64,000 nt of DNA, taken from Planctomycetota bacterium. Its GTDB lineage: Bacteria > Planctomycetota > Planctomycetia > Pirellulales > UBA7805. Both the position numbers and the translations under genes were made by a program. Each line of letters opens with the position of its first letter. Position 1 is the stretch's first letter. Positions 18,407 to 43,792 of the stretch are shown piece after piece. The DNA is taken from positions 12,026 through 76,025 of the forward strand of contig JAIOPX010000077.1 of the NCBI GenBank assembly GCA_021413705.1, read 5' to 3'. The notes beneath the pieces were generated by a model, which did not search any database, had not been told where the DNA came from, and saw only the letters and a list, made by a program, of their open reading frames with translations.

Positions 18407-18521
18407 CAGCCTTGAGCAACGTCATGCCGCGATCATCGACGTTCTGAATGTGGCTGGACCATTCGGCCCAGCCTCATTCGCAGCGACGGACAGGGCAGCA
18501 ACCGCCTGCTAGAATCGGGGT

Positions 18522-18791: not shown

Positions 18792-19081
18792 CCGAAGGGC
18801 TTCTTGTCTCATCAAGTCGGGGCAACAGGACACGGTTAGAACTTTTTCGGCCAGCTAGCGTGGTGTCTGCCGGTCGTCTGGGTAGTGCGTCAGCCTTATT
18901 CAAGGCGGCCATTATTCCACGGAATTGCTGTGCTAGCGGCCAAGATTTGGGAAAGGGCACAGCTCTGGGCCGGCTCCGCAAGGCGGCGAAATCGTTGCTC
19001 GCTGTGCTCGTCGCCCGGTACCCGGCATGTCTCTCGCTGCTGAATTGGCCGCGGCGAAGGCCGGTATTCTTCTGTAAGAAG

Positions 19082-19771: not shown

Positions 19772-19780
19772 TGAAGTATC

Positions 19781-20536: not shown

Positions 20537-20650
20537 GAGAGTAGGATAGTCCACCGGCCATGCTGTCGCAACGCGAGCTGAAAAGGGCGTGTCTGGCAAC
20601 AGATTTGAGACGCCTGTATACTGCTCCAAACCACCTCCGGAGCGTGACAA

Positions 20651-23989: not shown

Positions 23990-24380
<391 letters not shown>

Positions 24381-24896
24381 CGGAAGAGGTCGCCTTTGTT
24401 CTGATATTATCCACCCGATGCCGCAGAGTCCCAGAAAGACCAACTCGGCTCCAATCACCACGGCGACATGCTTTAGATTTGTCCTCTTCGTGAAATAATT
24501 GTGCGTAGAAGCACCCGTAAAAGTGAAAAGAATCAACGCCACACACAAATAGAACGGATTGTGCAATTCGATTCCTGTGAAACGGTCCTGACAGTTTATG
24601 GAAAAGGAAAATACCCCTAGCCCGCATCCGATTGGATACACGATGAGCCAACAGAACTTTAGATGTGCAAGCCCTCATTCTACCGAAGTTATGCGGAAGC
24701 CGGTAGAATCAAGCCAGTAGCCTCGCCATGCCAAAGAATCAGCGCAATTCGCCTCGCAAACCAGCGACGAAGTTCGCCCATCTTCGCAAGAAGATGCAGC
24801 AGCGGAAGATCGAGGCTGGTCTGGTCAGAAATGGAGCAAATGACTACAGGTTCGCCCCCGCCATCACCGTTTCAAAGCGATTCAAGGAGAAACCCA

Positions 24897-25091: not shown

Positions 25092-25406
25092 ATGACGAAC
25101 TACACGCACATCCTCGACCTGGCCAATGAAGCCGATCCGCCTGCGGATGGCATTTTAAGCCGAACGATATTCCAAGATGATCGGGTCAAGGCGGTCATCT
25201 TTGGCTTCGGCCAAGGCCAAGAGCTTTCGGAGCACACCGCCTCGAAACCGGCCATGCTGCACTTCGTCAAAGGCGAGGCTGCCGTGGGCCTCGGTGACGA
25301 CACAAAGGAAGCCCAGGCAGGAACCTGGGTCCACATGCCAGCGGGCCTCAAGCACTCGATCAAGGCGAAGACGCCGGTGGTCATGCTGCTGGTGTTACTG
25401 AAGTGA
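25092..25406 (+). CDS. cupin domain protein
   Basis: GQELSEHTASKPAMLHFVKGEA...WVHMPAGLKHSIKA is the two-motif cupin pattern. Confidence 0.7.
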   Translation: MTNYTHILDLANEADPPADGILSRTIFQDDRVKAVIFGFGQGQELSEHTASKPAMLHFVKGEAAVGLGDDTKEAQAGTWVHMPAGLKHSIKAKTPVVMLLVLLK

Positions 25407-27621
25407 CCTTCTTGAAAGAGTGTCCGGTCTTGAGCCCGGCGACGAACAGTACCAACGCCACGGCTCCTAGAAAGAAGATAGTATCGCCAGGAATTCGCAT
25501 CCAGCGCAGGTTTTGCATCAGCGGTGTTTGCATAAACTCGCTGCTACGTGCGTACCAGTAACCGTGCTCGACGGATGCCCAGGTTTGCATCAGTCCTACA
25601 GGCAGGAGGCTGAGGACGCACATCGCCATGAGTCCTCCGTTGAGCGCCCAAAACGAGAATCGCAGCAGACCATCCTTCCATTCTCGACCAGGGACCAGGA
25701 CTCGCAAACAGATCAGCATCAAGCCGATCCCCAGCATTCCATAGACGCCGAACAACGCAGCGTGACCATGCAAAGGCGTCGTGTTGAGGCCCTGCATGTA
25801 ATAGAGAGCAATCGGCGGGTTAATCATGAACCCAAACAGTCCGGCCCCGACCATATTCCAGAATGCCACGGACACGAAAAAGTAGATCGGCCACTTGTAG
25901 CGTTGCACCCACGGTGAAGTTCTCGACCGACGCAAGTCGTCCATCGCATCGAACCCGACGAGAACCAAAGGGACCACTTCCAAGGCACTGAAGACCGCTC
26001 CCCAGGCTAAGGCGACGGGTGGCGTGCCGGAAAAGTACAGATGATGGCACGTCCCGATGATGCCGCCCGCCAGGAAGATCGTGGCGGATAGCAAAGCCGC
26101 CGCAGCAGCGATCCCCGGTCGAATCAGATTCAACCGCATAAAGATGAAGGCGATGACCGTTGTGGCAAAGACCTCGAAGAAGCCCTCGACCCACAGATGA
26201 ACGACCCACCATCGCCAGTATTCAACTATCGACAAGTGCGTATGTTGTCCCCAGGTCAGCCCCGCCCCGTAGAAGAGGGCGATGGCACCCGTGGAGACGG
26301 CCAGCAATGCCACTAGCTGTTTCTGTTCCCCTTCTTTTCGCAGGGCCGGTCGCAAAACTCGAATCATCAAAAACAGCCAGAGCAGCAGGCCGACGAACAG
26401 TGCAATCTGCCACGCTCGCCCTAGGTCCACATACTCATAGCCCTGATGGCCGAAGTAGAAAGACACCGCATCCGTCATCTTGTTCTGAATGCTCAACCAT
26501 TCGCCGGTCAAGGAACCGACCACAACGAGCAGCAGAGCCAGAAACAGCACGTTGACGCCCAGGCGTTGTCCTTTCGGTTCCTTCTCGCTCACCAACGGGC
26601 CGATGAACAATCCGGCTGCCAACCATGCCGTGGCGATCCAGAAGAGGCCCAACTGAATGTGCCACGTCCGAGTTACGCTGTAGGGCAACCACTTCGAGAG
26701 GGGAAATCCATAGAAGGCGTCACCTTCAACGCCGTAGTGCGCTGTTATGACGCCCAAGAGCATCTGCAAGAGAATCAAAGCTGAAACAACCCAGAAGTAT
26801 TTGACCGTCGCTTTCTGGGAAGGAGTGGCTTGCCAACTGCCGAGGGGATCGGTTTCCGGCGCAACCCGCACTTCCTCGGCCTCTCGGCGAGACGCATACC
26901 ACCACCCCATCGCCGAGATTCCGGCCAGCAGCATGATAATGCTCACGCCCGTCCAGACGACCGCTTCGCCGGTAGCTCGATTAGCGACCAGCGGTTCGTA
27001 AGGCCAGTTGTTTGTGTAGCTGATGTGATCGTTGGGTCGATTGGTGGATGCCGCCCAAGCGGTCCAGAAATAGAAAGCTGAAAGCTGTCGCAAGCGGGCT
27101 GGATCAGTCACGGCTCCCGCAGGGATTGCGTACTCGGTTTTTCCATTCGAGAACACATCCGAATAGTGGGCCAAGTTCGACTCGAACGCATCGGCACGAA
27201 CGGGGGCGACCGTGACCGTCTGCGTTGTCGAATCGTAGGTATTGGTCCGCATGAGCGTTGCTAGGCGACCGCTCAGTTGTGCCTGTTGTTCCCCATTCAG
27301 CGCCTCATAGCGTTTGCCGAAATCGCTCGTCGCCCAGCGGTCGAGTATGAAAATGGCTTCTCGATGCAGCCAATCAGCGGTCCAGTCGGGTGCGACGTAG
27401 CTGCCGTGCCCCCATACCGAGCCGACTTCCATGCCGCCGAGCGTCTGCCAGACGTTCTGCCCTGCTTGAATCTCACCTGCGTCGATGACCACCTTGCCAT
27501 CGGTCGTGACCACCTTGTTCACAAGCGGTGGGGCTTCCTGGTAAATCCGAGTACCGATCCAACCGAGAATGGCAAAGGAGACGAGTAAAACGAGAGCGAA
27601 AGCAATCCATAGTTTCTTCAT
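25381..27621 (-). CDS. norZ: quinol-dependent nitric oxide reductase (qNOR)
   Basis: About 746 aa. The N-terminal extension with GQNVWQTLGGMEVGSVWGHGSYVAPDWTADWLH is followed by a 12-TM haem-copper-oxidase-like core. Start is MKKLWIA at 27621; an alternative is at 27642. Confidence 0.88.
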   Translation of the reverse strand: MKKLWIAFALVLLVSFAILGWIGTRIYQEAPPLVNKVVTTDGKVVIDAGEIQAGQNVWQTLGGMEVGSVWGHGSYVAPDWTADWLHREAIFILDRWATSDFGKRYEALNGEQQAQLSGRLATLMRTNTYDSTTQTVTVAPVRADAFESNLAHYSDVFSNGKTEYAIPAGAVTDPARLRQLSAFYFWTAWAASTNRPNDHISYTNNWPYEPLVANRATGEAVVWTGVSIIMLLAGISAMGWWYASRREAEEVRVAPETDPLGSWQATPSQKATVKYFWVVSALILLQMLLGVITAHYGVEGDAFYGFPLSKWLPYSVTRTWHIQLGLFWIATAWLAAGLFIGPLVSEKEPKGQRLGVNVLFLALLLVVVGSLTGEWLSIQNKMTDAVSFYFGHQGYEYVDLGRAWQIALFVGLLLWLFLMIRVLRPALRKEGEQKQLVALLAVSTGAIALFYGAGLTWGQHTHLSIVEYWRWWVVHLWVEGFFEVFATTVIAFIFMRLNLIRPGIAAAAALLSATIFLAGGIIGTCHHLYFSGTPPVALAWGAVFSALEVVPLVLVGFDAMDDLRRSRTSPWVQRYKWPIYFFVSVAFWNMVGAGLFGFMINPPIALYYMQGLNTTPLHGHAALFGVYGMLGIGLMLICLRVLVPGREWKDGLLRFSFWALNGGLMAMCVLSLLPVGLMQTWASVEHGYWYARSSEFMQTPLMQNLRWMRIPGDTIFFLGAVALVLFVAGLKTGHSFKKVTSVTPAA

Positions 27622-27685
27622 CAGACATTTCCCTTCGGCCAATCAGAATGCTGTGTCAGAGGAGCGAACAAGTTTAGCGACACCG

Positions 27686-28282
27686 CTATGATACTGCCGC
27701 AGGAACGATGGCTTGTTGATAATGGCGGTTGATGAGGTCGTTTTGTAGCCAGAGTAGTTTGTTGAAGGCACGCAACGTCTGCACTTCCAACGCTCGCTCC
27801 AATCCGAGGCCCAAGATCGTGTTCGTTAGGGCATCCGCTACAAAGCCGAGCAAGGCATTCATTTGTACCAGTGGTACGTTGAGTTCTTTGGACCCGGCCT
27901 TCGGAGTGTGCATCTTGCCGACCCCATCGAGATAGGTAACCATCTTGGCGTCGTAGGGTTTGGTGACGAGTGCCGCTAGGTAGCGAGCCAGATGAGCTTT
28001 GCGAAAACGGATCATCTCATGGTCGGGCGTGACTTCTTCGAGACTCGTCGGCACAACCCCCTCGTACCCGAACTGCCTGGGCAGGAAGTGCCTCCAGGTT
28101 GCGTCGTAGCGGTGAAGTTTGTCGTACACGGCATCCACTAATGTCGGAACGAGTGGGGCAATAACGGGTGCAGCACCGTGAATCGCCGCCACGTCCTCCT
28201 CCCCAAATCCCATGAATTCGACGAGGTATTCAAAGCGATAGCCGAGGTCGGATTCCAGGCGTTGTTCGTTAATTTGGATCAT
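27686..28282 (-). CDS. stand-alone protoglobin-family protein
   Basis: The ATG at 28282 is preceded by GGAG. LGYRFEYLVEFMGFGEEDVAAIHGAAPVI...LWLQNDLINRHY resembles the protoglobin / globin-coupled-sensor globin domain. No output domain. Confidence 0.65.
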   Translation of the reverse strand: MIQINEQRLESDLGYRFEYLVEFMGFGEEDVAAIHGAAPVIAPLVPTLVDAVYDKLHRYDATWRHFLPRQFGYEGVVPTSLEEVTPDHEMIRFRKAHLARYLAALVTKPYDAKMVTYLDGVGKMHTPKAGSKELNVPLVQMNALLGFVADALTNTILGLGLERALEVQTLRAFNKLLWLQNDLINRHYQQAIVPAAVS

Positions 28283-28377
28283 TTGTGGCTCCTGGCAGGC
28301 AGGTTGACGCTGGGCGCACTTGAGCAGATAATCGGACATCAATATCCATTTTGAAGTCAAGATATATTCGCCCATAA

Positions 28378-28393
28378 TGGATGTCAAGGTCCA
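28378..28393 (-). promoter_or_regulatory. Rrf2/NsrR-type operator candidate overlapping the -35 box of the protoglobin-qNOR promoter
   Basis: The minus strand reads TGGACCTTGACATCCA. TTGACA, a 17-nt spacer and TATCTT follow in the direction of the ATG at 28282. It is near-identical to the site at 45064..45079. Confidence 0.5.
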
Positions 28394-30076: not shown

Positions 30077-31639
30077 TCAGAAGTTCATCTGGTACTGGAC
30101 GTACGCAAAATCCGCATCTCCGGTAAATGGAGGAGGCGTGGGATTCGTGCTATACCAGGAGCCCGTGAAGTAGTGAGAGTAACCGAACAGCCAACTGGTA
30201 TGCGGCGTCATGTTCCAGGTCGCCAGGAAATCCAGTTCCTGACCTAGATACCGGCTGCCCCCCGGTGTGGTGACAAACGGCGTGCCGTTGATTCGGTACG
30301 GCACATCATTGCCATTTTGCAGGTGAAAGATGTGCCACCACAGCAGCAGTTTCCAGTCCTTCCGCGGCTGCATCTCCAATTGAAAATTCAGATCCTCGAT
30401 ATTCGTCCGGGCGTAGAAATCCATGAAGCCCAGATACTTGTGACCGAGCGGAAAGTTTTGATTAAATCCGTTCCCAATGGTGTCATCGCCGGAGGCCCAA
30501 TCGTAGTAGGCCCACAACGTCGGCTTCCAGCAGTCTTCCCGCAGTTGACGGCCGCAGCCAAGCGTGAAGAAACCGGCTGAATGCGACATGTCGCCAAACG
30601 CGCCAAATTGATAGCCCCCTTCCACCTCCCCCAGCCAGCCGCAGTATGCGCCCTTCCATCGGCCGCCGACGGTCTCGAAAGCAAACGTGCGTCCTGCCTG
30701 GAACGGCGAGTCGTAGTCGTGATAACCGATCCAGTAGAGGTCGTAGACGTGTCCCTCGTGCCCCTTGTAGGTTCCCCACAGCGCATAGAACTCTTGGGTT
30801 CCATCGGGGGAATTGAGGCTTTCCGGTTCGCCGAAGATGGGGCGCACCCAGAAGCCATCGACGTTCCAGTCACTGCCGCGATAGAAGAGCTTGGCGCCGT
30901 CAAACGTGCGGCGCGTGTTGGCCCAGTCCAGCGGAGAGATCAATCGCTGCGAACCATAGAGCAGCTCCTGGCGACCGACACGTCCCCAGATGTCGCCATC
31001 GCAGGTGTCCCATACCCGCGCATCAACGAACAGATTTTGTATCTCGTGCGGGTCGTGTTCGATGGCCCGCGGCGGAAAATCGTCGAAGTCGCTGTTGGCC
31101 GACAAATATTCGGCGTAGCAGCGCAGCCAATCATTGACGTGCCAATCGGCGTACAGCCGCATGCGACGCAAAAGAAAATCGTCTGATAAGCCGGTCAGGC
31201 CCAGCCCCCGCATATTTTGTTCGTCCTGGAAGCGGAGGCGATATTGTCCGCCGATGTCGAGCACACCGGAATCCTCGCAGGCGCGGAGCTGTTTGAGCCT
31301 CTCTCCTAAATGCCAACCGTCGTAGCACGGGTCGTTCAGATACTTAAAATCGTTGTCGTAGAACGGATCCTTGTAGGCCGCGGCCGCAGCCGCCTTGAGG
31401 GCAGCCAGTTTTTTCGGCGGACAAGGTACGACGCTTCCATCGTCGGCCCCTGACTCACTTTCCAGCGCCTCACTTACAAGCTGAAAGGGTGCATTTTCTG
31501 CCATGGATCCGGAAATCTGTTCCGGCTCCGGGGGTCCGCCACCAAGAGACTGCTCTGCGCGAACAACAGGAGCCCTGCTGACCTGACAGGCCAGGACCAG
31601 GGCGATCACCCAACCGAAGGGGCGCAACGACGGGCGCAT
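30077..31639 (-). CDS. outer-membrane beta-barrel, alginate-export-like family
   Basis: Signal peptide MRPSLRPFGWVIALVLACQVSRA (start 31639). DIGGQYRLRFQDE and alternating aromatic-rich strands ending in ...YVQYQMNF. Confidence 0.55.
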   Translation of the reverse strand: MRPSLRPFGWVIALVLACQVSRAPVVRAEQSLGGGPPEPEQISGSMAENAPFQLVSEALESESGADDGSVVPCPPKKLAALKAAAAAAYKDPFYDNDFKYLNDPCYDGWHLGERLKQLRACEDSGVLDIGGQYRLRFQDEQNMRGLGLTGLSDDFLLRRMRLYADWHVNDWLRCYAEYLSANSDFDDFPPRAIEHDPHEIQNLFVDARVWDTCDGDIWGRVGRQELLYGSQRLISPLDWANTRRTFDGAKLFYRGSDWNVDGFWVRPIFGEPESLNSPDGTQEFYALWGTYKGHEGHVYDLYWIGYHDYDSPFQAGRTFAFETVGGRWKGAYCGWLGEVEGGYQFGAFGDMSHSAGFFTLGCGRQLREDCWKPTLWAYYDWASGDDTIGNGFNQNFPLGHKYLGFMDFYARTNIEDLNFQLEMQPRKDWKLLLWWHIFHLQNGNDVPYRINGTPFVTTPGGSRYLGQELDFLATWNMTPHTSWLFGYSHYFTGSWYSTNPTPPPFTGDADFAYVQYQMNF

Positions 31640-32115
31640 GCTGGGACAAGTCCTTTTGTCCGATGTGGGGGATCTGCAATACCAGGAGTTAATTCGACCG
31701 TGAACAGGCGGTTTTCCAGGCAAGAATTTCCAAAGCGGCAAAGTCAGCGTAAAAGGTACATGAATGACGCCGAAGGGGCCGTGAGTTTGACGCCTAAGGG
31801 CGACTTGGCACAGCAGCAGGCACCGTCTGAGCGAAATCGCTCATACGGGAGTTGAGGGCCGCTGCCATGGAAGCGGCCGCGGGTGAAAATGCACGGAGGG
31901 ATTGTCGTCGTATGCGGCAACCTACTATACTCTCCGCGGCACATGTGGCAGACGATAATTTTGCCAATGATGCTGCGGTCTTGTCTCGTTACGTGTCCGT
32001 TTTTCTTTCAGGCTGTAGTGGTTGCGGTGGGTCGGACGGAATAGGCTCCAAGGCTGGCTTTCGCAACGCGACCGACCTGATAAACATCCCGTGCAACCGC
32101 CGGGACGGTTTGCAA

Positions 32116-32637
32116 ATGTCGGAATCGCCATCATCTCATCCTGACGATTCGCGCGGGAACTCCCGTCGTCGATTCTTGTTTCTGATTCTCCCCTGGGGGA
32201 TCGTCGCTGCTGCGTACGGCACGTTGGCCGCGTTGGCGGTGCGGTTTCTCTTTCCGAGCCAGCGCCGTCGCCAGGACTGGCAATTCGTGACCACCACGGC
32301 TGAGTTGAAGACGGGACAATCGCTCACGTTTACGTCACCTGACGGGTCGAAGATCGTGTTGGCCCGGCAGCGGGATGGCGACGAACAAGATTCGTTTATT
32401 GCGCTGTCGAGCGTTTGCCCCCACCTGGGTTGTGCAGTGCATTGGGAACCGCACAACAACCGTTTCTTCTGTCCCTGTCATAACGGGGCTTTCGATGCGG
32501 CCGGCGCGCCCACGAGCGGCCCGCCCGCCAAGGCGGGTCAGCCTCTGACTCGTTTTCCCCTGCGCGTGGACCGTGGGCGGTTGTTCATTCGCGTGCCGCT
32601 GGAACGTGTGACGGAGTCTCGTGAGAGGACGGTCTAG
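32116..32637 (+). CDS. Rieske [2Fe-2S] subunit of a cytochrome bc-type complex (Tat signal)
   Basis: SRRRFLF twin-arginine motif. CPHLGCAV...CPCHNGAF Rieske boxes. Start at the ATG at 32116. Confidence 0.85.
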   Translation: MSESPSSHPDDSRGNSRRRFLFLILPWGIVAAAYGTLAALAVRFLFPSQRRRQDWQFVTTTAELKTGQSLTFTSPDGSKIVLARQRDGDEQDSFIALSSVCPHLGCAVHWEPHNNRFFCPCHNGAFDAAGAPTSGPPAKAGQPLTRFPLRVDRGRLFIRVPLERVTESRERTV

Positions 32638-32707: not shown

Positions 32708-33757
32708 ATGGCAGGACTGGCACAATGGTGGGCGCAGCGCGTGCCCATCTCCGGCGAGCAGCTTCGAGAGCTGACAAACGAGCCGGTTCCCAACCACCTG
32801 AAGCGGTGGTGGTTCTGCCTGGGTGGGACGCCGGCCTATCTATTCGTGGTACAGATTGTCACGGGCATCCTACTGGCTTTTTACTATCAGGCCTCTCCGC
32901 AATCGGCCTACGAATCGGTGCGGTACATCACGGAAGAGGCCAGCTACGGTTGGTTTTTTCGCAGCCTGCATCGGTGGTCGGCCACGCTGATGATCGCGGC
33001 GGTGATTCTGCACCAGATGCGGGTCTACTTCACCGGCGCCTACCGCAAACCGCGGGAATTGAATTGGGTGATCGGGATGTGCCTGCTGATGTGCGTGCTG
33101 CTGACCGGCTTCACGGGCTACAGTCTCGTGTTTGAGCAGCTCAGTTACTGGGGGGCCAATGTGGCCGCGAACATCTCGAATTCCGTTCCCCTGTTCGGCA
33201 CCGCCCTGAAGCAATTGCTGCTGGGAGGCGAAGCCTACAATGCGCATACCCTGTCCCGATTCTACGTGCTCCACGCGGCCGTTCTGCCGGGGACGATGAT
33301 TCTCCTGCTTTTCGTGCATGTCACGCTGATTCGGCTGCACGGAGTGAGCGATCTTAAGTTTGCCGATGAAGCACCTGACCAACCTCAACACTTCAATTTC
33401 TTTCCAGACCATCTCCTCACGGAGATCATGGTGGGGCTGGTCCTGATGCTGATCCTCTGCGCGCTGGCCACGCTCGTGCCGGCGCATCTGGGGCAGAGGG
33501 CCGATCCGCTGACGACGCCGGAAGTGATCAAGCCCGAATGGTATTTCTACGTGACGTTTCGGTGGCTCAAGCTGTTTTCACTGAGCTTCGCGGTGCTGAG
33601 TATGGGGCTGATCGTCGCTGCGATGTTCATTTGGCCGTGGATTGACATGCTGTTGCGGCGGATCACGGGTCGTGAAGAGGCGAGCGTTTATATCGGCATT
33701 GTGGCTACTTTGTTGTTGATCGGTTTCACAGTCTGGGAAGCGGTCGTCGCGCATTAA
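32708..33757 (+). CDS. cytochrome b (b6 + subunit IV-like fusion)
   Basis: FYYQASP..AYESV..I......GWFFRSLHRWSA and the PEWYF motif (KPEWYFY), with multiple TM helices. Confidence 0.9.
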   Translation: MAGLAQWWAQRVPISGEQLRELTNEPVPNHLKRWWFCLGGTPAYLFVVQIVTGILLAFYYQASPQSAYESVRYITEEASYGWFFRSLHRWSATLMIAAVILHQMRVYFTGAYRKPRELNWVIGMCLLMCVLLTGFTGYSLVFEQLSYWGANVAANISNSVPLFGTALKQLLLGGEAYNAHTLSRFYVLHAAVLPGTMILLLFVHVTLIRLHGVSDLKFADEAPDQPQHFNFFPDHLLTEIMVGLVLMLILCALATLVPAHLGQRADPLTTPEVIKPEWYFYVTFRWLKLFSLSFAVLSMGLIVAAMFIWPWIDMLLRRITGREEASVYIGIVATLLLIGFTVWEAVVAH

Positions 33758-33805: not shown

Positions 33806-34237
33806 ATGTCGCTTCGCACCAAACAATGGATTATCGCGGTTCTGGGTTCCGCCTTCCTGGTGTCACTGCTTTTTGTCCAGTGGCGTGAGGTCGCGCGCGT
33901 CCGCGAGGAGGCCGGTTTGGTGCCTCCCCATATCGCCGTCCCGGCCAGTTCGGAGTCGTGCGTGAAGTGCCATGGCGAATCCTCTCCAGGCATCATCGAC
34001 CATTGGAAGGGAAGCACGCACGCTGTGAAGGGAGTGGGCTGTGTCGAATGTCATCAGGCAGACGCCAAGGACGCCGACGCCTTTGAGCATTATGGGGCGA
34101 CGATCGCCACCGTCGTGACGCCACGCGATTGTGCCCGTTGCCACGTGAATGAGGCGAACGAATTTGCCCACAGTCACCATGCCCGGGGAGGAAACATTCT
34201 GGCCTCGCTGGACAATACCCTGGCAGAGGTGGTGTAA
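33806..34237 (+). CDS. HAO-family octahaem cytochrome c, N-terminal fragment (haems 1-3)
   Basis: TM anchor followed by CVKCH...W.GSTHA, VGCVECH and CARCH. These align by eye with haems 1-3 of Nitrosomonas HAO (CVECH..W..STHA, VGCIDCH, CGTCH). It ends at TAA 34235..34237. Confidence 0.75.
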   Translation: MSLRTKQWIIAVLGSAFLVSLLFVQWREVARVREEAGLVPPHIAVPASSESCVKCHGESSPGIIDHWKGSTHAVKGVGCVECHQADAKDADAFEHYGATIATVVTPRDCARCHVNEANEFAHSHHARGGNILASLDNTLAEVV

Positions 34238-34246
34238 GGGGCTAAA

Positions 34247-35431
34247 GTGCCGTTCAATCCGCACTCCCCCACGCCAGGCATGACAGTCGATAAGGTCAAC
34301 GGCATGGCCAGCGTAAACACGGGGTGCAAACAATGCCACGGAGGCAAGGTGGGCCTGCAGAAGTCGGACGGCGGTATGCTTACCGTGGACGATTTGAAGC
34401 CTGGCGCGGATGGCAAACCCACGCAGGAAGATCTGCTGGCGTTGGTGGCCCGGGACAAACAGGGGCGTCCACTGCTGCATCCTGATACTTGGCCGAACAC
34501 AGGCATAGGTCGGATGAATCTCGATGGCTCGCTGGGTTCGTGTTCCGCCTGCCATTCGAGACACGATTTTTCACCGCGGCGGGCTCGGCAGCCGGAAAAC
34601 TGCGCCAAGTGCCACCTCGGTCCGGATCATCCGCAGAAAGAGATCTATGAAGAGTCGAAACATGGGGTGGCTTTTCGAGACTTGAAGGACAAGATGAACC
34701 TGGATGCACACCGCTGGGTGCTGGGCAAGGACTACAGTCAGGCGCCCACTTGTGCTACGTGTCACATGTCGGCCAACAAGCTCAACGGCGAGAAAGTTAC
34801 GCATAATCCCGGCCAGCGCATCTCCTGGACCAATCGACCGGAGGTGAGCCTGGTCATGGATACGGACGCCAAGGGCGAGGTCATCAAGGAAACGGATCCC
34901 GCCAAGCGTCGTGACCTGGTGAAAGACACCTGGCAGGACAAGCGGATGCGAATGACCCAGGTCTGCATTCATTGCCACACGCCGGACTATGTCAGTGCGT
35001 TCTACAAGCAATACGACGATTTCGTGATCAACTACAATGAGAAGTTTGCCAAGCCGGGACAGAAGATCATGGCCGCCTTGCGGCAAGACGGCCTGCTGAC
35101 GCCCAAGCAGTTCGATGAAAAAATCGAATGGACATGGTTCTATCTGTGGCACCACGAAGGTCGCCGCGCGCGGCACGGCGCTTCGATGATGGCGCCGGAC
35201 TATGCCCACTGGCACGGCATGTTCGAGGTCGCGGAGAGATTCTATAAGGAATTGATCCCCGAGGCCCGTGAACTGGCCGAAAAGGCCGAACACAACGGCG
35301 GCAAGGCGGAACATACACGGGCCGCAATCCGCGACATACTGGCCCGCCCCGAACATCAATGGTTCGAAGCCGCGAAGGCCGACGGACTGAAGCCGGCAAC
35401 GCCTCCACCGCCGAAGTCTGAAGAAAAGTGA
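34247..35431 (+). CDS. HAO-family octahaem cytochrome c, C-terminal fragment (haems 4-8)
   Basis: Same reading frame as the previous ORF. GCKQCH, CSACHSRHDFS....PENCAKCH..PDH....Y..SKHG, APTCATCHM and CIHCH parallel HAO haems 4-8. The track start is a GTG 3 codons after the TAA. Confidence 0.75.
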   Translation: MPFNPHSPTPGMTVDKVNGMASVNTGCKQCHGGKVGLQKSDGGMLTVDDLKPGADGKPTQEDLLALVARDKQGRPLLHPDTWPNTGIGRMNLDGSLGSCSACHSRHDFSPRRARQPENCAKCHLGPDHPQKEIYEESKHGVAFRDLKDKMNLDAHRWVLGKDYSQAPTCATCHMSANKLNGEKVTHNPGQRISWTNRPEVSLVMDTDAKGEVIKETDPAKRRDLVKDTWQDKRMRMTQVCIHCHTPDYVSAFYKQYDDFVINYNEKFAKPGQKIMAALRQDGLLTPKQFDEKIEWTWFYLWHHEGRRARHGASMMAPDYAHWHGMFEVAERFYKELIPEARELAEKAEHNGGKAEHTRAAIRDILARPEHQWFEAAKADGLKPATPPPPKSEEK

Positions 35432-35473: not shown

Positions 35474-35953
35474 CTACAACTCAACGGTGGCCAGGACGCG
35501 CACCGACATTCCGGGGGACAGCATACCGACCCGGACAACGGCGGCCATGTATCCAAATCTGCCAACGACCACTTCCTTCAAACGTGGATCGATGGCGTCA
35601 AGTACGTAACAGGGCTTGCGCGGTTGGGTGAGCTGCAAGACCACGTCGCCGATTTTCAGCAGTGTTCCCGGCTCCAGGTGCTGAACGTCGAGTCCCTCCA
35701 CCGTCAGGTTCTCACCCGCGGCGCCCGGCGAGAGCGCGAATCCTTCTCCGATCAATTGTCGCATGATTTCAATATCCCACAGGCAGACCGCTCGATCGGG
35801 TCGGCAGTGCTTGGCGTGCGCGTGCGCATCGCCATCAAGGCCGGTTTCGGTTACCCGGGCCAAGGGTTGAGGTCGCTTGGGGATGCCGCCGGGTGAGCGA
35901 CAGACAGCGATGACCGCGGGAGCATCTTCAAGTCTCTGGTGCATAACCGTCAC
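35474..35953 (-). CDS. MOSC domain protein (YiiM-like)
   Basis: GENLTVEGLD......GT.L.IGDVVLQLTQPRKPCYVLD is the MOSC signature with the conserved Cys. Confidence 0.75.
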   Translation of the reverse strand: MTVMHQRLEDAPAVIAVCRSPGGIPKRPQPLARVTETGLDGDAHAHAKHCRPDRAVCLWDIEIMRQLIGEGFALSPGAAGENLTVEGLDVQHLEPGTLLKIGDVVLQLTQPRKPCYVLDAIDPRLKEVVVGRFGYMAAVVRVGMLSPGMSVRVLATVEL

Positions 35954-36020: not shown

Positions 36021-36824
36021 CTACTGCGGGCCAAGCTGGCAGCCTTCACACTCCTCAGGCCGTTCGACCGAACTGGGGGCAGCGCCCACTCTGGGATGTT
36101 CAATGCCGCACAAGCTCCGTTCGGCCGCTATCAAGGCGCCGAGCAAGACGCCGACTGCTTCATAGTATCCACCAGGATTTTCGCGCCCTAACAAGCGGCC
36201 GAACGCCGGGGCCCACCAGGCCAGATGCTCGTGGAGAAACCGTCGGGCGGCATCGCGACAGATGGCGGCGCGTTGGGCACCGCCCTGATCGCCGCATTCC
36301 GCTGCCCGACGTTCCAGTCCCAGCAGGAATGCCATGAACTCCAATTCCAGGACGATATGGTCGTGCTGCTCACGGCGCTGCGGGGACGGTTCCAGGCCGA
36401 ACGCCTGATAAAACCCGCTCACGTCAGCCAAAGCGTGCGATCTCTGAAAGGTGAACTTGCTGTTGATGTAGTCCGTTTCATGTGGCGGACAGGTGCTGCT
36501 GGCCAAGAGTCCGAAAGTGGATTCAAACAGCTCATTCAGTGCGTGACGCGACGCAGGGAGACGGGCGACGACCGGGGCCGGATTCAGCTCCTCTAAGGGC
36601 TGCTCCCCGAGGGCCAACTCCGCTGACGCGGCAGCCGCTTCGTTGCGCAGTAAGTCGGCCGCGTCGTTCAGGAGCGAATTGTTTGGTAGCGACGTCAGCT
36701 CGAGCCAAGCGCCGGCCCGTGGATCCGCCAGCGCCATGGCGATGAATCGATATAGGATCTGCCGTGCCTGGCTGACGGCAGGATCCCAGGCCACCTCAAC
36801 CCGTGCATTGTCGATCGTGGTCAT
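36021..36824 (-). CDS. TorD/NarJ-family redox-enzyme maturation chaperone (delta subunit)
   Basis: It lies at the distal end of the molybdoenzyme operon. The helical protein carries a YR.IA.AL..P pattern and EFMAFL block typical of NarJ/TorD/EbdD-like chaperones. Confidence 0.6.
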   Translation of the reverse strand: MTTIDNARVEVAWDPAVSQARQILYRFIAMALADPRAGAWLELTSLPNNSLLNDAADLLRNEAAAASAELALGEQPLEELNPAPVVARLPASRHALNELFESTFGLLASSTCPPHETDYINSKFTFQRSHALADVSGFYQAFGLEPSPQRREQHDHIVLELEFMAFLLGLERRAAECGDQGGAQRAAICRDAARRFLHEHLAWWAPAFGRLLGRENPGGYYEAVGVLLGALIAAERSLCGIEHPRVGAAPSSVERPEECEGCQLGPQ

Positions 36825-36845
36825 AGCTGTTGCTTTCGTTGGAAT

Positions 36846-38141
36846 TCAGATCGAGTTGACGTGCTCTGCCGCTGGCCGCTCGAAGGTCGGCTCCTCGACC
36901 GTCACACGGACTACTTCTTCGCCAAGTTTGTTGTAGCCGATGACCGTATCATTGAAGATTTCCTGGGTCTTGCTGCTGCCATCAGGCATGGTCACCTGCA
37001 CCTCAGCGACCTTGGGCCCCTGTTTGATTTCAAAACGAAAAACGATCTGTTGGCTCGCGCGGAACAACTGCAATACGGCGAGCAGTTCACGGTCGGGACA
37101 GCTGTATTGCTCGATGGCGTGTTCCACGCCGGGACCGAACATCTGGACCAGGTAGCCGCGAGGCACCCAGCGGGGCGGGATATAGAAGCCGTTCGGCTCC
37201 GTGCCGAATTGCGGGTAGAGTGGCAGAGCAATCTTCCGCTCTCGGATCAAATAGTACAGCGGGTTCTGGGGATCCTTGGCCCACGTGCCGTCCTCGGCGA
37301 TTTTCACCAGTCCTTGCAGCCGGATCTTGCCGACGCAGGCCGCCATACAGCGCGTCTCGGCGGGAGCACCGGTGGGACTGATGGTGGGATCCTTCCCTTC
37401 GATCCGGGGGTAGCAGCCAACGCATTTTTCGCTGGTCCCGGTCGTCGGCCGATACATCGCCTTCTTATAGGGGCAGCCTTCCACGCACTTGCGATAGCCG
37501 CGGCAACGGCTCTGATCGATCAGCACGATACCGTCCTCGGGGCGCTTGTAGATGGCGTTGCGAGGACAGGATCCCAGGCATCCCGGATAGGTGCAATGGT
37601 TGCAGATTCGGGCCAGATGAAAAAACCAAACTTTATGCTCGGGGAGTTGCGTGGAGGCACCAAATTGTTCCGCACGCTGGAATGTGCCCCCGGTGGCCGT
37701 GTCTTCGTGGATGTTGGGACTCCGCCACTCATCGTCGGTCGGCAGGTAGCCCAGCGCCTGTTGCGGGCCGTCGGGGCCGGGCTTCTTCTGCGCCGCCTCG
37801 AAGATCGTCAGACCCTCGAACGTGCCATAGGGCTTGCGATCCGGTTCGGCTGTAGACTTATTCCAGACCTGCTGGCCGGGGTTGGCCTCTTCAAGCATCG
37901 CGAGCAGCTTCGCGTCCCAATGTTGAGGATAACCGCCGTAGGGTTTGGTTTCGACATTATTCCACCACATTAATTCCTGACCCTTGGAGAACGTCCAAGT
38001 GCTCTTGCATGCCATGGTGCAGGTTTGGCAGCCGATGCAGCGATTCGGATTGAAGACGAAGGCAAACTGCCATTTCGGGTGCCGTTCTTCATGCGGATAA
38101 CCCATTTCCCGCCCGAGCTGCCAGTTATAGACGTTGGCCAT
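36846..38141 (-). CDS. Fe-S beta subunit of a type II DMSO-reductase-family enzyme (NxrB/NarH-like)
   Basis: CIGCQTCTMACK, CNHCTYPGCLGSCP, CRGYRKCVEGCP and CVGCYPRIEG. MWWNNVETKPYGGYP block. 431 aa. Confidence 0.88.
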   Translation of the reverse strand: MANVYNWQLGREMGYPHEERHPKWQFAFVFNPNRCIGCQTCTMACKSTWTFSKGQELMWWNNVETKPYGGYPQHWDAKLLAMLEEANPGQQVWNKSTAEPDRKPYGTFEGLTIFEAAQKKPGPDGPQQALGYLPTDDEWRSPNIHEDTATGGTFQRAEQFGASTQLPEHKVWFFHLARICNHCTYPGCLGSCPRNAIYKRPEDGIVLIDQSRCRGYRKCVEGCPYKKAMYRPTTGTSEKCVGCYPRIEGKDPTISPTGAPAETRCMAACVGKIRLQGLVKIAEDGTWAKDPQNPLYYLIRERKIALPLYPQFGTEPNGFYIPPRWVPRGYLVQMFGPGVEHAIEQYSCPDRELLAVLQLFRASQQIVFRFEIKQGPKVAEVQVTMPDGSSKTQEIFNDTVIGYNKLGEEVVRVTVEEPTFERPAAEHVNSI

Positions 38142-38153
38142 GGTCGCCTTTCC

Positions 38154-38525
38154 TTACGCGTTAGGCGGCAGTGTAATCTGCACCAGCCGCTCGGAGAGCG
38201 GTTGACTGTGCGTGGTGGTCACTCTCACAACTCCGCAGCGCGCCAGGATCGCCCTGATCCGCTCTTTCAGCGGCTCCTCCCCCAAGAGCCTCCACAAACC
38301 GTGGAACCCCGTATAAAAAGGGTCGCGGGACAGTGTCATGAGCGCGTCGAGCCCATTTCCCATCCGGGCATATTCCTCGACCAGCAGGCGCAGCATCAGT
38401 TCCGGGTCACCATCGACCTCGACACCGCTGAGTTCCAGAGGATCCTCCGGCAGCATCTCGCGCGAAACAGGATGCACCTTGGGCCCAATGTTGTTCAGAT
38501 CATCTAGCATGACACTGCTCCCCAT
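38154..38525 (-). CDS. small hypothetical protein between the alpha and beta subunit genes
   Basis: 123-aa ORF, tightly packed (20 nt after the alpha stop, 12 nt before the beta start). No signal peptide or motif recognised. Confidence 0.5.
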   Translation of the reverse strand: MGSSVMLDDLNNIGPKVHPVSREMLPEDPLELSGVEVDGDPELMLRLLVEEYARMGNGLDALMTLSRDPFYTGFHGLWRLLGEEPLKERIRAILARCGVVRVTTTHSQPLSERLVQITLPPNA

Positions 38526-38545
38526 GCGATTTCGTCACGTTCGGG

Positions 38546-41500
38546 TTATTCTTTGATCTTGATCAGCGCGCCGGTCAAATACGCTTCACTCTCGGGCGTC
38601 TTTTCACCTGGACTATAGCCGCTCTGCCCCGGCTTCCAGACGCCCACCCCGTCCAGGCCGCCACTTTCCGCCTTGGTGATTCGGACGAGCGTTTCTTTCG
38701 GCACCGTGTTGATGGCGTGGTTGTCGATATCCGCACCAAAGGTGAACGCCATACTGCCGGTCTTCTTGTGAAACAGGCTATCCGTCTGGTGCATGGGCAT
38801 CATCCAGTTGCGGGTGATGCTTTGATGCGAGCCATAGCGGTAGCTGGCCTGGTAACCGGTTTCCGCAGACAGGGCACGGCCGTCGGCGCGGGTTTCATGG
38901 GCGCGCACGGTTCGTTCCGTGGCAATCCAGCCCGTGTGCTTCATGATCGTGAACGTGTAGGGGAGCCCCGGATTGAGCTTCACGCGGACCATGCAGCGGA
39001 AGGCTTTATGGCGCGGACCTTTGTCGTCTTTCCAGCCGATGTAGGGGCGATCCAGTTCATTGGCGTCGACGTAGACATAGTCCCCTTCATGCAGTCCCAG
39101 GTCGGCGGCCGCCTGGGGGTTCATCTGAATCTGTCGATCCGCCACGCCTGGCGCCCGCTTGTCGGTGCGGTGCGGATCGCCAAAGTTATCGCTCCACAGC
39201 CAGTGCCAATCGACGGTGGACCAGGATGAGTGGGTCGAATGGCGGCTCTTGGGTGTGCTGCAGAAGAATTGATATCCCTGCTTCCAAAGCGGGTTGACGG
39301 TTTGCTTGACCTCCGCCCAGGGCAGCTTGACGTTGCGCACTTGGCGCAAGTCAGGATCAGCCGTGTCGGCCGGAATACCAAAGTCAGCGGGTCGCACAAA
39401 TGGGCTGGTAGAAACGATGACGTTCGGCAGATAGGGAGTCGCCTCGACTCCTTCGCGGTGGACGATCAGGTTTTCGCCATACTCGATAGCCTCGGGCAGA
39501 TCGCAATAGCTGGCCAGCCGCCCGCAATCCGTGTAGAACGGGATGGAATCGTGTACTTGCTCCCAGAACGGTACGCGCGGGTAGGTGCGAAACAGCATCA
39601 GTGCCGCGCCGGGCTCGCCTCCATATTCTCCGGCAATCATCTTGTCGACCTGATAAGGACCGTCCTTGCCGCGCGTCGTCGTGGAATTGTCAAAGACACG
39701 TTGCAGATAGACTTTGGCCTTTTTCTCCGTAACAAATTTGAAATAATCGGCGAACCGGCGATCGCCGGTCTTCTTCGCCAGGGCACGGGCGACGCCGGCG
39801 AACACTTCAGCGTCGTCCACCGAATCGTGAACCGGCTTGATGCCTCCCTTCCAGACCTGGATGAAGGGATTCGAGCAGGAGCCGCCGCATTCGTAGTCCT
39901 CCTGCTCGACCCAGGAATTGACCGGCAGCACCACGTCGGCGTATTCGGCGCTGCCGGTCCATTCGATCTGTTGGTCGACGATCATGTCAACTTTAGGCAG
40001 CACGTTGACAATGATATTGTAGATCCACTTAGACTGGTTCAAGAAGTTGGCGTTGTTGTACCAGATCACCTTGGTGGGGGTTGGCAGGTGCGTCTTGCCA
40101 GTGAAGTTGCGACGGCCGCCTTTGGGCAAATCGACCGTCGTCGTCCTCTCTCCACAGGCCCAGTAAGACGGATCCTCGCCATCGCTCAGGTGTCGCAGAT
40201 GTTCGTGCGTGATTCGCGTTGCTTCGTCGAGGACGGGATGGAAAGGATCTTCATGCGTGTAACTGCCGACTCCCGGCCCGCTCCAAGGGGAGGCCTGCAT
40301 CAGCGCTCCCTTGTAGTTGCCGGCCCAGGTGAAGCAGCCGGCACCATGCCGGCCGATGTTTCCGGTGAGCATCACGGGCAGGTAAGCGGCTCGATTGTGG
40401 AGGGTGGCATGGAAATAGTGGTTGACACCTTCACCGATGTGGATCGCTACGGGATGGCCTGCCTCGGTCGTTTTCCAGATGTCCTCGGCCAAGCGACGGA
40501 CCAGATGTGCGGGCGCGCCGGAGATCTCCTCGACCGTTTTTTCGTCGTAGTCCCGCAAATGCCGCTTATACATTTCCAGGATCGGCATCACTTCAACCTG
40601 GCGACCGTCGGCGAGTTGGACCTGGTAGGTTCCTTCCAAGGCGGCCGCCACATTCAAATTCTTGCCTACCTCATCACGGCTGATGAAGACCACTCGCTTG
40701 CCAGCGGTGTCCCACACACAAAAGTCGCCGATGCGCCGCCGCTGTGAATCCGTCAGCCCCTGGATTTTGTAGGAGGGACCGGCCGAGATGTCCTTGGGGC
40801 GATAGCCGGCCATCACGTCCTCGGGCCGCAGCCTGCGAAGCGTATCGGTTCGCACGAGCAGCGGGAAATCCGTGAACTGGCGGCAGAAATCTGGTTTGTA
40901 CCAGTGGTTGTCGAGCATGATTTTCGTCACGCCCAAGAGTACCGAGGTATCGCTTAGCCCCGGCCGTACGCCGATCCAGTAATCACTCTTGGTGGCCGGG
41001 CAGTTGTATTCCGGGGCGATGTCCACCAGTCGGCCGCCGCGCTCCATAACTTCATTGAGCCAATGCGACTCGGGCATCTTGTTTTCGATCAGGTTCTTGC
41101 CGATTTGGATCACCAGCTTGGAAAACCGCAGGTCATTGAAATCCATGTCGGCGGTCTGCAAGCCATGCACAAACGGCTGCCCGGGCGCCTGGTCGCCGCG
41201 CCAGGTGTACTCGTTCCAGTCGCGCGCGCCGTGCGCTTTTTCTGCCGGCACGCCGCGGACATGATGATCCAAGAGTCCCAGCAGGTTGGCGAAACGATAG
41301 ATGCCGAACTTCCCCACGATGCCGTGGATTGGCAAGTTGGAGCCCATCTTGATCACGCGTGTGCCGGCCCCTTCCACCTTGTCGATCATCACCTGCTCGT
41401 AGCCGTCGCGCTTCAGTCGCTCGACACCATCAGCGCCGCTGTACGTGCGGGACACCGCTTCCAGACCGGCCGCCACATAGTCGGATATCTCCCCCCAACT

Positions 41501-42016
41501 GAGCCGCACATAGCCATCGTTGCCCCGGTCATCGAATTTGTACTTGCTCCGGAGTTCAGGGTTCTCCGAAAGCGAGGGGAACCCGGCGTCGGCCCAATCC
41601 TTCCATCCTTTGCGCAATACCGGGCCCTTCAGCCGGTACGGGCCATAGACCCGCCGTTGCATGGTAAATCCCTTGGGGCAGCCACGAGGATTCCAGGCCT
41701 TGGTGGCCTTGTTGCCATACAGATCGCCGTAGCGGTCATGATCGTAATTTTGCTCGCTGCGAATCATCACGCCGTTGCGGACATACGCTCGCAGCCGGCA
41801 CATGTGCGTATCGTTCGGAGCGCAGACCCAAGTAAAGGTCCGGTCATAGCGGTACTGATCAAGATAAATCTTCTCCCAATCGCGGCTGGGATAGGCGCCC
41901 AGTGGGCTTTCACCGCTGACAGGAGCGAACGCCCAGCCCTGCGCTCCCTGAGCCAGCAACACGCTACCGCCGGTAGCCGCGCAAGATTTCAGGAAGTGAC
42001 GTCTTGAGATGGTCAT
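38546..42016 (-). CDS. molybdopterin alpha subunit, Tat-exported (NxrA / periplasmic NarG-like)
   Basis: MTISRRHFLKSCAATGG..AQGAQGWA is a Tat signal (start 42016). VCAPNDTHMCRLRAYVRNGVM is the N-terminal Fe-S region. About 1156 aa, larger than Pcr/Ser/Ebd alpha subunits. Confidence 0.88.
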   Translation of the reverse strand: MTISRRHFLKSCAATGGSVLLAQGAQGWAFAPVSGESPLGAYPSRDWEKIYLDQYRYDRTFTWVCAPNDTHMCRLRAYVRNGVMIRSEQNYDHDRYGDLYGNKATKAWNPRGCPKGFTMQRRVYGPYRLKGPVLRKGWKDWADAGFPSLSENPELRSKYKFDDRGNDGYVRLSWGEISDYVAAGLEAVSRTYSGADGVERLKRDGYEQVMIDKVEGAGTRVIKMGSNLPIHGIVGKFGIYRFANLLGLLDHHVRGVPAEKAHGARDWNEYTWRGDQAPGQPFVHGLQTADMDFNDLRFSKLVIQIGKNLIENKMPESHWLNEVMERGGRLVDIAPEYNCPATKSDYWIGVRPGLSDTSVLLGVTKIMLDNHWYKPDFCRQFTDFPLLVRTDTLRRLRPEDVMAGYRPKDISAGPSYKIQGLTDSQRRRIGDFCVWDTAGKRVVFISRDEVGKNLNVAAALEGTYQVQLADGRQVEVMPILEMYKRHLRDYDEKTVEEISGAPAHLVRRLAEDIWKTTEAGHPVAIHIGEGVNHYFHATLHNRAAYLPVMLTGNIGRHGAGCFTWAGNYKGALMQASPWSGPGVGSYTHEDPFHPVLDEATRITHEHLRHLSDGEDPSYWACGERTTTVDLPKGGRRNFTGKTHLPTPTKVIWYNNANFLNQSKWIYNIIVNVLPKVDMIVDQQIEWTGSAEYADVVLPVNSWVEQEDYECGGSCSNPFIQVWKGGIKPVHDSVDDAEVFAGVARALAKKTGDRRFADYFKFVTEKKAKVYLQRVFDNSTTTRGKDGPYQVDKMIAGEYGGEPGAALMLFRTYPRVPFWEQVHDSIPFYTDCGRLASYCDLPEAIEYGENLIVHREGVEATPYLPNVIVSTSPFVRPADFGIPADTADPDLRQVRNVKLPWAEVKQTVNPLWKQGYQFFCSTPKSRHSTHSSWSTVDWHWLWSDNFGDPHRTDKRAPGVADRQIQMNPQAAADLGLHEGDYVYVDANELDRPYIGWKDDKGPRHKAFRCMVRVKLNPGLPYTFTIMKHTGWIATERTVRAHETRADGRALSAETGYQASYRYGSHQSITRNWMMPMHQTDSLFHKKTGSMAFTFGADIDNHAINTVPKETLVRITKAESGGLDGVGVWKPGQSGYSPGEKTPESEAYLTGALIKIKE

Positions 42017-42064
42017 GTCAGTTGTTCCTTGAACCATCCTGCCTGACGGCCGTATTGCGGCTCC

Positions 42065-43792
42065 TCAGTGGGGTGGCTTCTCCAAAAGCAAATCCTGCCA
42101 GATGCTGATCAACTTCTGTCCGTTGCGGTCGCGATGATCCCCATCCCAGACTGCCAGCGCAATCGAGGCCCGCTCACCCGGCACCAACGACACGCCGGAT
42201 GCTCCCTCAACGACGAGCGGGCGCGTCATCACGACGGTCCAACGACCCTCCCGCCATTGCCCGCGGGCGGTCACCAGGCGACTCTTCGGCAACCGGAACG
42301 CCACGCTTCCCGGCCCGCTGGCCGTGAGCGACGAACTGCCGGATGCACCGGCGGCCGGCACAACAGGGTTGCCGCTGGCCTTGGCCGGCAGCGAAATATC
42401 GGGTTGTTCCTTCCGCTGCGTGCCAGGCCGCTGATATTCGGCGGTGGAAACGGTTTTTTCGCTCAACGGATATTGATCCACCACGGTGCGAGGATAGATC
42501 TGCTCGACATCGGGCGGGCCGGTCGGCGGTTCCGCCTGCCAAAACCACACGTCAACCGGCGCGTCGGTCGAGCCCATCCCCAGAAATGGCTCGACTGTGC
42601 CACGGTACAACTCGACTGCGATCGCATCGCGGAACGCCTGGGTGCGGGCCGCGTCGCTGTTGGATGTCGCATCCTGCCAGCGGAGCCGGATGGCAATGTC
42701 GCGTCCGTCGTGGACCGCTTGCACAGTCAGCCCGGGATCAGCGTCATCGCGCCACCACAGCGGTGTCATTCGTAGCCGCACCGCAGGACTCATCTCCCAT
42801 TGCGACGAGGCCTGATCTCCGGGCAGTTTAGCAACATACTTGGCCACAATTTGCTCACGCTTCAATAGCGACGCTTCGCGCTGTGCATCGGTGGAGAGCG
42901 ACCGCAGAAAATTCACGAGATCGGTTATCTCTTCCGGTTTAAGGTTGGCACTGGCGGGCATGGGAGTACCGGGCATCCCTAGAGCGATCCGACGATAGAA
43001 GGAGGTTGGGTCCGGGCTCCCCTTGTAAATGCCACGGGTCAAATCGCGGGGGCGTGTCGGCAATCCCTCCGCGTCAACCATCTTCTGCTGCCCATCTCCG
43101 CGCCCTTCGTTGCCATGGCACGAATGACAACTCTGCTTGACATACAGCTCCTTGCCGCGAGCGATACTCTTGGCATCCGGGGGGCCGATGGCCGGCACGG
43201 CGAATACCGCGGCGGGCAGGGTGCGGTTCTCGACGAATTGTTTGACTTCTTGCTCGTCAATTTGCTCTTCCCCCTGCTCCTTCAGGGTACGGATGATTTC
43301 TTCACGCGCGCCCTCGCGACGAAATCGCAACACTTCATCCACCAGCAGCGATCGATCCCGCGGGCTCAGATGGGCCCAGGAAGGCATAGCCGATCCGGGC
43401 ATTCCTCGCACCAACATCGCCTCGATATCCTCCCGAGATGGCACGCCGTTGACCGTGCTGACAAGCCGGTAAGGACTTGCACGGAGGTTGCGTGGCTTGG
43501 GGTAGATAAATCTGGCGGCCAGACCCTGCCCGTCTCCTTGATCGCCGTGGCACGCCGCACAGTGCCGGGTGTAGAGTTCGGTAGCGGTGAGAGGTTTGGT
43601 GGCCACAGCTACAGGGACCGCAGTTTCTCCCGAAGTTCGCTGTCCGCCGACCCCAGCATCACCCCTCGTCGTGTCCTGACGTGGGGTCGGTGGGGGAGCG
43701 GATGGTTGACAGCCGACAGCCATCCACGCCAGGAATGCGCAGATCATGAACTCAATTCTGTCGCGTTTGAGTCCTTCCGCCATCATTCCCAT
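42065..43792 (-). CDS. gamma subunit: lipoprotein with two cytochrome c domains fused to an EB_dh/DOMON-like haem-b domain
   Basis: The lipobox-like WMAVGC is followed by CAACHGDQGDG and CHSCHGNEGRG. The C-terminal ...IALAVWDGDHRDRNGQKLISIW is typical of ethylbenzene-dehydrogenase gamma-like domains. Confidence 0.75.
   Translation of the reverse strand: MGMMAEGLKRDRIEFMICAFLAWMAVGCQPSAPPPTPRQDTTRGDAGVGGQRTSGETAVPVAVATKPLTATELYTRHCAACHGDQGDGQGLAARFIYPKPRNLRASPYRLVSTVNGVPSREDIEAMLVRGMPGSAMPSWAHLSPRDRSLLVDEVLRFRREGAREEIIRTLKEQGEEQIDEQEVKQFVENRTLPAAVFAVPAIGPPDAKSIARGKELYVKQSCHSCHGNEGRGDGQQKMVDAEGLPTRPRDLTRGIYKGSPDPTSFYRRIALGMPGTPMPASANLKPEEITDLVNFLRSLSTDAQREASLLKREQIVAKYVAKLPGDQASSQWEMSPAVRLRMTPLWWRDDADPGLTVQAVHDGRDIAIRLRWQDATSNSDAARTQAFRDAIAVELYRGTVEPFLGMGSTDAPVDVWFWQAEPPTGPPDVEQIYPRTVVDQYPLSEKTVSTAEYQRPGTQRKEQPDISLPAKASGNPVVPAAGASGSSSLTASGPGSVAFRLPKSRLVTARGQWREGRWTVVMTRPLVVEGASGVSLVPGERASIALAVWDGDHRDRNGQKLISIWQDLLLEKPPH

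Follow-up and report, generated by a model that had tools for sequence, protein, structure and literature searches.

The window, by which the whole analysed stretch of 64 kb of planctomycete DNA is meant, carries a gene for an octahaem cytochrome of the hydroxylamine oxidoreductase (HAO) family that is interrupted by a single in-frame TAA between the third and the fourth haem motif. This locus raises the question of whether the stop is a genuine nonsense mutation, an error in the sequence, a codon that is read through or the seam of an enzyme composed of two polypeptides, and, beyond the split itself, what kind of protein its intact relatives represent.

Anatomy and family of the interrupted gene

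Two open reading frames (ORFs), an upstream one at 33806..34237 with 143 aa and a downstream one at 34247..35431 with 394 aa and a GTG start, were found in the ORF list and by translation to lie in one reading frame, and nothing separates them except the TAA and the codons GGG GCT AAA, after which the GTG at 34247 follows. The parts of the gene (33806..35431) are as follows:

33806..34234, forward strand: N-terminal piece of the octahaem cytochrome (piece 1), residues 1-143, ATG start, with anchor or signal and haem motifs 1-3
34235..34237, forward strand: premature TAA, codon 144, Glu (GAA/GAG) in orthologues
34238..35431, forward strand: C-terminal piece of the octahaem cytochrome (piece 2), residues 145-541, with haem motifs 4-8 and C-terminal helices
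33959..33973, forward strand: haem motif 1, CVKCH, piece 1
34040..34054, forward strand: haem motif 2, CVECH, piece 1
34130..34144, forward strand: haem motif 3, CARCH, piece 1
34325..34339, forward strand: haem motif 4, CKQCH, piece 2
34541..34555, forward strand: haem motif 5, CSACH, piece 2
34601..34615, forward strand: haem motif 6, CAKCH, piece 2
34751..34765, forward strand: haem motif 7, CATCH, piece 2
34964..34978, forward strand: haem motif 8, CIHCH, piece 2

A sequence-only reading of the same DNA had described exactly this, two same-frame ORFs with three and five CxxCH motifs split by a TAA, and sequence, ORF list and translation agree with it. The motifs keep the order and spacing of the family, and all eight Cys/Cys/His triplets sit in columns that are invariant or at least 90% conserved in the family alignments. 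A second multihaem ORF was not found in the 64-kb window, where the remaining ORFs with CxxCH carry one or two motifs, and the eight-haem arrangement of the joined sequence goes well beyond what chance would give.

The joined sequence matched Pfam PF13447 with an E-value of 1e-25 (90.8 bits at a cut-off of 21.9), and none of the NCBIfam equivalog models scored above its own cut-off for the octahaem protein. Homologues with end-to-end alignment were present in more than 7,900 database clusters; the best 120 of these were inspected and comprise 441-628 aa, each encoded in one ORF, with a C-terminally cut entry of 441 aa as the single exception to full length. Among solved structures the best match was IhOCC (4QO5), with E-values of 8e-41 for the single sequence and 8.5e-100 for the family profile, followed in the sequence ranking by Kuenenia Kustc0458 (6H5L), Nitrosomonas HAO and Kuenenia HOX and HDH. 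An AF2 structure model was made for the nearest intact relative (P0001, 93% identical and of equal length) with a 48-sequence alignment as input, and reached a mean pLDDT of 92.6 and a pTM of 0.86. An HAO-type fold with C-terminal helices is predicted in this model, and all 11 significant Foldseek matches obtained with it were HAO-family structures (TM 0.45-0.63 normalised to the query), headed by 4qo5 (TM 0.63/0.66), while HAO, HOX and HDH reached about 0.5.

Pfam, the PDB sequence search and the fold thus back the earlier assignment to the HAO-family octahaem cytochromes. The likeness to HAO that had been seen there is to be refined in one point, the closest characterised relative being the reductive IhOCC and not the oxidative HAO. 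Judged by its sequence, the intact protein is a full-length, membrane-anchored octahaem cytochrome of the HAO/IhOCC clade. The window copy does not encode one continuous exported chain with all eight haems, and with a TAA at codon 144 and a downstream piece without signal it is regarded as a disrupted member of this clade.

The stop codon, its age and its explanation

Position 144 is Glu in 14 of 14 aligned top database matches and in 81 of 81 genome loci, each of which was covered by a single tblastn segment across the site and none of which showed an internal stop. Codon 144 is GAA in 45 and GAG in 36 of these loci, the latter also in the nearest relative locus (L001), whose DNA identity to the window gene is only 80%. 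Since Glu occupies this position in all relatives examined, a single G>T from GAA is sufficient to give the TAA. The comparison with orthologues that the sequence-only reading had proposed thus found the relatives uninterrupted, with a split in 0 of 81 loci and 0 of 14 aligned matches, and its claim that the stop interrupts a region unbroken in relatives, after haem 3 and before haem 4, was confirmed by the alignments, the 81 loci and the model.

Codon differences to L001 are overwhelmingly synonymous, at 63 against 11 non-synonymous in piece 1 and 172 against 31 in piece 2, and by these counts purifying selection is apparent on both. In comparison with 77 full-length orthologues, 184 columns were invariant and the window departs from them at codon 144 only, the other 183 being kept; two further departures in columns conserved to at least 97%, K147 and E346, are common to the nearest relatives. 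The approximately 183 invariant residues correspond by arithmetic to about 412 non-synonymous target sites, and as the window hits none of them, neutral divergence after the break would be less than about 0.7%. With no other invariant residue lost and the operon partners intact, the break is either very young or an artefact.

The probable explanation is a nonsense mutation of recent date with loss of function. GAA at codon 144 would have been turned into TAA by one G>T, and the event would be very recent, because no decay is visible elsewhere in the gene or the operon. Translation would then stop after the anchor and haems 1-3. The hydropathy of piece 1 has its maximum of 2.65 at residues 9-23 (anchor or signal), and a long N-terminal helix is predicted for residues 3-35 in the model of P0001. 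On piece 2 neither a hydrophobic nor a twin-arginine export signal was found, and hydropathy never rises above 0.46 across the piece, in agreement with the earlier claim that the second piece lacks an export signal. In c-type cytochromes haem is attached only after export; a product restarted from the GTG at 34247 would hence be a haem-free cytoplasmic apoprotein, and the enzyme would be knocked out as encoded. A sense codon in the orthologues and no means for a working downstream product are what a recent pseudogene presents.

Unlikely, yet deserving of serious attention, is an error of base-calling or assembly, in which case codon 144 would be GAA in the organism, its 541-aa protein would be intact, and the T at 34235 would be mistaken. 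Apart from this codon the gene is flawless, retaining 183 of the 183 remaining invariant residues, the lack of secondary decay is equally expected of an artefact, one base restores the universal Glu, the product of 143 aa is documented on a single contig of 136,698 bp with no independent replicate, and other assemblies also hold broken copies of the octahaem family. However, those broken copies are frameshifts, the usual assembly error, whereas here a substitution is concerned, which is rare in consensus sequences, and the checked neighbouring genes show neither frameshift nor truncation, as a clean assembly would. A genome generally contains more genuine pseudogenes than stops introduced by consensus substitutions. 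With substitutions uncommon as consensus errors and the neighbours undamaged, a real mutation is favoured over a base error.

A second copy or a same-species assembly was not found with exact-product look-ups (both pieces and cytochrome b), and in the genome collection the best match reached only 78%, so that no assembly of the same species was recognised there. Two metagenome pattern scans, one of them degenerate at third codon positions, likewise yielded no second copy, from a collection that evidently lacks some JGI samples, the second pattern having missed L001 as well. With piece 1 by itself as the query, the 143-aa product of the window was recovered on one contig, plus many short fragments. 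One database protein that also ends at residue 143 (P0272) was considered as a shared split and rejected: it is a contig-less partial at protein level, and its end is read as chance, since similar fragments end at 143, 145, 146, 146, 149, 150 and so on. Same-frame adjacent ORF pairs were discarded as a gauge of assembly quality, because high G+C produces many such pairs by chance. Eight N-terminal octahaem fragments on long contigs of other assemblies (P0284, P0289, P0300, P0301, P0305, P0309, P0318, P0321) enter out-of-frame tails between residues ~145 and 230; the breaks in this set are of the frameshift type and are either assembly errors or independent pseudogenes.

It is very improbable that a genuine two-polypeptide enzyme is present, in which an anchored trihaem piece would be complemented by a pentahaem NrfA-like piece restarted at the GTG at 34247. 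The cut is placed exactly where pentahaem NrfA-type modules start (Soares et al. 2022, PMC9250108), the GTG follows 9 nt past the stop with a purine-rich stretch before it, and both halves are undamaged. Against this, piece 2 without a signal would have no route to the site of haem attachment, orthologues are not split in any of the loci and matches aligned above, and residue 144 is predicted to lie inside the fold. In the model of P0001 it is the last residue of a helix (135-144), no low-confidence chain break occurs there, and the strongly conserved GxxVPFNPHSPTPG lies downstream; as the residue ends a helix and the chain continues confidently into this conserved stretch, codon 144 does not appear to be an obvious domain boundary. 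Support for the GTG restart from a Shine-Dalgarno sequence was considered and rejected: a weak purine-rich AAGGGG, starting 11 nt upstream of the GTG, leaves a spacing of 5 nt to it, but intact relatives have this stretch too, AAGGGG corresponds to Glu-Gly codons, and most genes here are without a clear Shine-Dalgarno sequence.

The pentahaem NrfA has been derived from octahaem ancestors in a pruning model (Soares et al. 2022, PMC9250108), and in this NrfA/ONR pruning haems 1-3 are parted from haems 4-8, as in the window copy. NrfA, however, is made with a signal peptide of its own, and its active haem is ligated by Lys, whereas piece 2 of the window lacks a signal, and in contrast to pruning the cut in the window is a lone nonsense codon that is not shared by relatives. 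Because of the missing signal on piece 2 and the absence of the cut from relatives, its position between haem 3 and haem 4 at the NrfA boundary was treated as coincidence. The chances are similarly slim that the TAA is real and tolerated and that the pieces are of some use, be it the trihaem stub or both pieces together. In a modest version the stub of residues 1-143 would serve as a c-type outlet of the Rieske/cytochrome b pair, feeding other acceptors; the boldest version, if true, would amount to a living snapshot of pruning from an octahaem ancestor to a pentahaem NrfA-type protein.

Programmed read-through or recoding of the TAA to give the full-length protein is the least credible of all, for, despite the open and conserved frame beyond the stop, TAA serves as a regular terminator that ends 8 of 31 likely window genes, including that of cytochrome b, whose end matches its orthologue, the stop is conserved in 0 of 81 relatives, and a suppressor tRNA is absent from the window, the sole tRNA there being Val-GAC. 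Both release factors recognise TAA, and selenocysteine and pyrrolysine are encoded by other codons. Of the four options that had been left open earlier, nonsense mutation and base error have therefore stood, whereas read-through and a two-polypeptide enzyme are argued against by the split in 0 of 81 orthologue loci. In all likelihood the split reflects a knock-out of very recent origin or a miscalled base rather than a novel type of split enzyme.

The Rieske/cytochrome b/octahaem trio and its surroundings

The octahaem gene closes a trio of co-oriented genes, whose order is the same in the window and in L001. Its partners in the window are:

32116..32637, forward strand: Rieske [2Fe-2S] protein, first gene of the trio (Pfam PF00355)
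32708..33757, forward strand: cytochrome b, b6-like, 349 aa, second gene of the trio (Pfam PF00033, PF13631, PF00032)

The mechanical ORF of the Rieske protein opens at 31852, and the version of 173 aa from 32116 fits the orthologue end to end, with 80% identity to that of L001 over 173/173 aa. Cytochrome b is intact, ends with a TAA terminator and is 92% identical to its counterpart in L001 over 349/349 aa. Both operon partners are full length, as is the porin listed below.

Synteny was counted in 70 related loci with enough upstream DNA. In 63 of the 70 the octahaem gene is immediately preceded by that of cytochrome b, and in 68 a Rieske gene lies on the same strand less than 2 kb upstream. 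Named carriers are overwhelmingly Planctomycetota (Pirellulales, Planctomycetales, Gemmatales), in keeping with a planctomycete origin of the window, and an intact trio is present in the cultured Bythopirellula polymerisocia Pla144 (L057). By this gene order, Rieske protein, cytochrome b and octahaem cytochrome constitute a fixed operon across non-anammox Planctomycetota, and by analogy the octahaem protein may be regarded as the c-type subunit of a Rieske/cytochrome b module that is known here from gene adjacency. Two homologues with 71-72% identity are filed under Candidatus Kuenenia MAGs (L032, L069), on contigs of 56-61% G+C. Kuenenia itself has a G+C content of about 41%, far from these values, and both are hence probably mis-binned planctomycete contigs.

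Around the trio the following features were recognised by domain search:

25381..27642, reverse strand: quinol NO reductase, NorB with fused cytochrome-c-like domain
27686..28387, reverse strand: protoglobin
30077..31741, reverse strand: alginate-export-type porin
35474..35953, reverse strand: MOSC protein
36021..43792, reverse strand: Nar/NXR-like type II DMSO-reductase-family cluster
45196..45972, forward strand: ScdA, di-iron repair type

In the neighbourhood of L001, genes for ScdA, hemerythrin and Rrf2 are close by. A role of the trio in nitrogen-oxide metabolism fits the nitrogen-oxide genes around it in the window and these genes in L001. The Nar/NXR-like cluster encodes alpha (1163 aa), beta (431 aa) and gamma (575 aa) subunits and a NarJ-like chaperone; the N-terminus of the alpha subunit is twin-arginine-like (RRHFLK), and the gamma subunit is a fusion of a cytochrome c domain with the EB_dh haem-b domain. 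No NCBIfam model reached its cut-off on the cluster, for which nitrite oxidoreductase and periplasmic nitrate reductase are both conceivable identities.

Further features of the window are:

4795..4869: tRNA-Val (tRNA search)
4993..6264: tyrosine integrase (domain search)
23996..24145, reverse strand: group II intron match RF00029, 45.2 bits (Rfam)
53532..61756, reverse strand: type I restriction-modification system with HsdR (1041 aa), a DUF4268 protein and HsdS

Following the integrase, the region 4795..21568 contains an AAA_25 ATPase, a family-A DNA polymerase, a Schlafen/AlbA_2 protein and many Pfam-negative ORFs, and it is probably an integrated mobile element that adjoins the nitrogen-oxide genes. 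An ORF at 24156..24641 on the reverse strand, adjoining the RF00029 match, has no Pfam match; on visual inspection its C-terminus looks like that of an intron-encoded protein. The site looks like an intron remnant, as no full-length reverse-transcriptase gene was recognised near it. A 521-aa ORF adjoining the type I system is probably HsdM (putative).

Likely reaction and meaning

In the profile alignment the catalytic Asp-His pair of Nitrosomonas europaea HAO that follows haem 6 (D267/H268) aligns with D274/H275 of the window sequence, Tyr334 stands opposite Arg344, and the cross-linking Tyr467 stands opposite His468, although the register is ambiguous around His468/Tyr466, Tyr466 being only two residues off, and another register would pair Tyr with Tyr. 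In 48 diverse relatives this column holds Y in 30, W in 4, F and D in 3 each, and H and V in 2 each; IhOCC has Trp. On these alignments a P460 cross-link in the planctomycete octahaem protein is unproven and seems somewhat unlikely.

IhOCC (Igni_0955 of Ignicoccus hospitalis, 4QO5) was described as an octahaem nitrite reductase without a P460 cross-link (PMC9250108). It shares with the planctomycete protein the eight haems in the same order and the C-terminal helices, but it is archaeal and only ~24% identical, and the planctomycete protein differs in its N-terminal membrane helix, in its conserved operon and, in the window copy, in being interrupted. Two HAO-family octahaem proteins of Kuenenia stuttgartiensis, for which a reductive function is predicted or shown, are comparable as well: HAOr (Kustc0458, 6H5L), which has no Tyr cross-link and converts nitrite to NO (PMC8042395), and Kuste4574, the HAO-like component in the R/b-3 complex of anammox bacteria and a candidate nitrite reductase (PMC12485887). 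As in the trio, an HAO-like octahaem protein stands beside Rieske protein and cytochrome b in R/b-3, and 6h5l was the second-best structural match. On the other hand, 6H5L is distant (~18% identity in the structural alignment), and the R/b-3 cluster comprises six genes (kuste4569-4574) in contrast to the three of the planctomycete trio. HAO of Nitrosomonas europaea (1FGJ, 4FAS) agrees in Pfam family, eight-haem order, the Asp-His after haem 6 and a fold at TM ~0.5, but it is soluble, oxidative and cross-linked at Tyr467.

By analogy with these systems we infer that the planctomycete octahaem protein more probably acts as a reductase, like IhOCC and HAOr. In the intact enzyme, quinol-derived electrons from the Rieske/cytochrome b pair would be passed to the catalytic haem 4, at which a nitrogen oxyanion or oxide, e.g. 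nitrite, NO or hydroxylamine, would be reduced; both direction and substrate are presumed, IhOCC, anammox HAOr and Kuste4574 being the closest analogues for this function.

Taken by itself the split matters little, as it concerns a single broken gene to be flagged as a pseudogene or a possible error. One activity for the reduction of nitrogen oxides may have been lost from the strain only recently, and if the mutation is real, the strain would offer a ready-made natural knock-out for comparison. The better target of study is the intact Rieske/cytochrome b/octahaem module: its octahaem family is very large and strongly conserved and appears biochemically uncharacterised, and the planctomycete trio represents a simple counterpart of the enigmatic R/b-3 complex of anammox bacteria.
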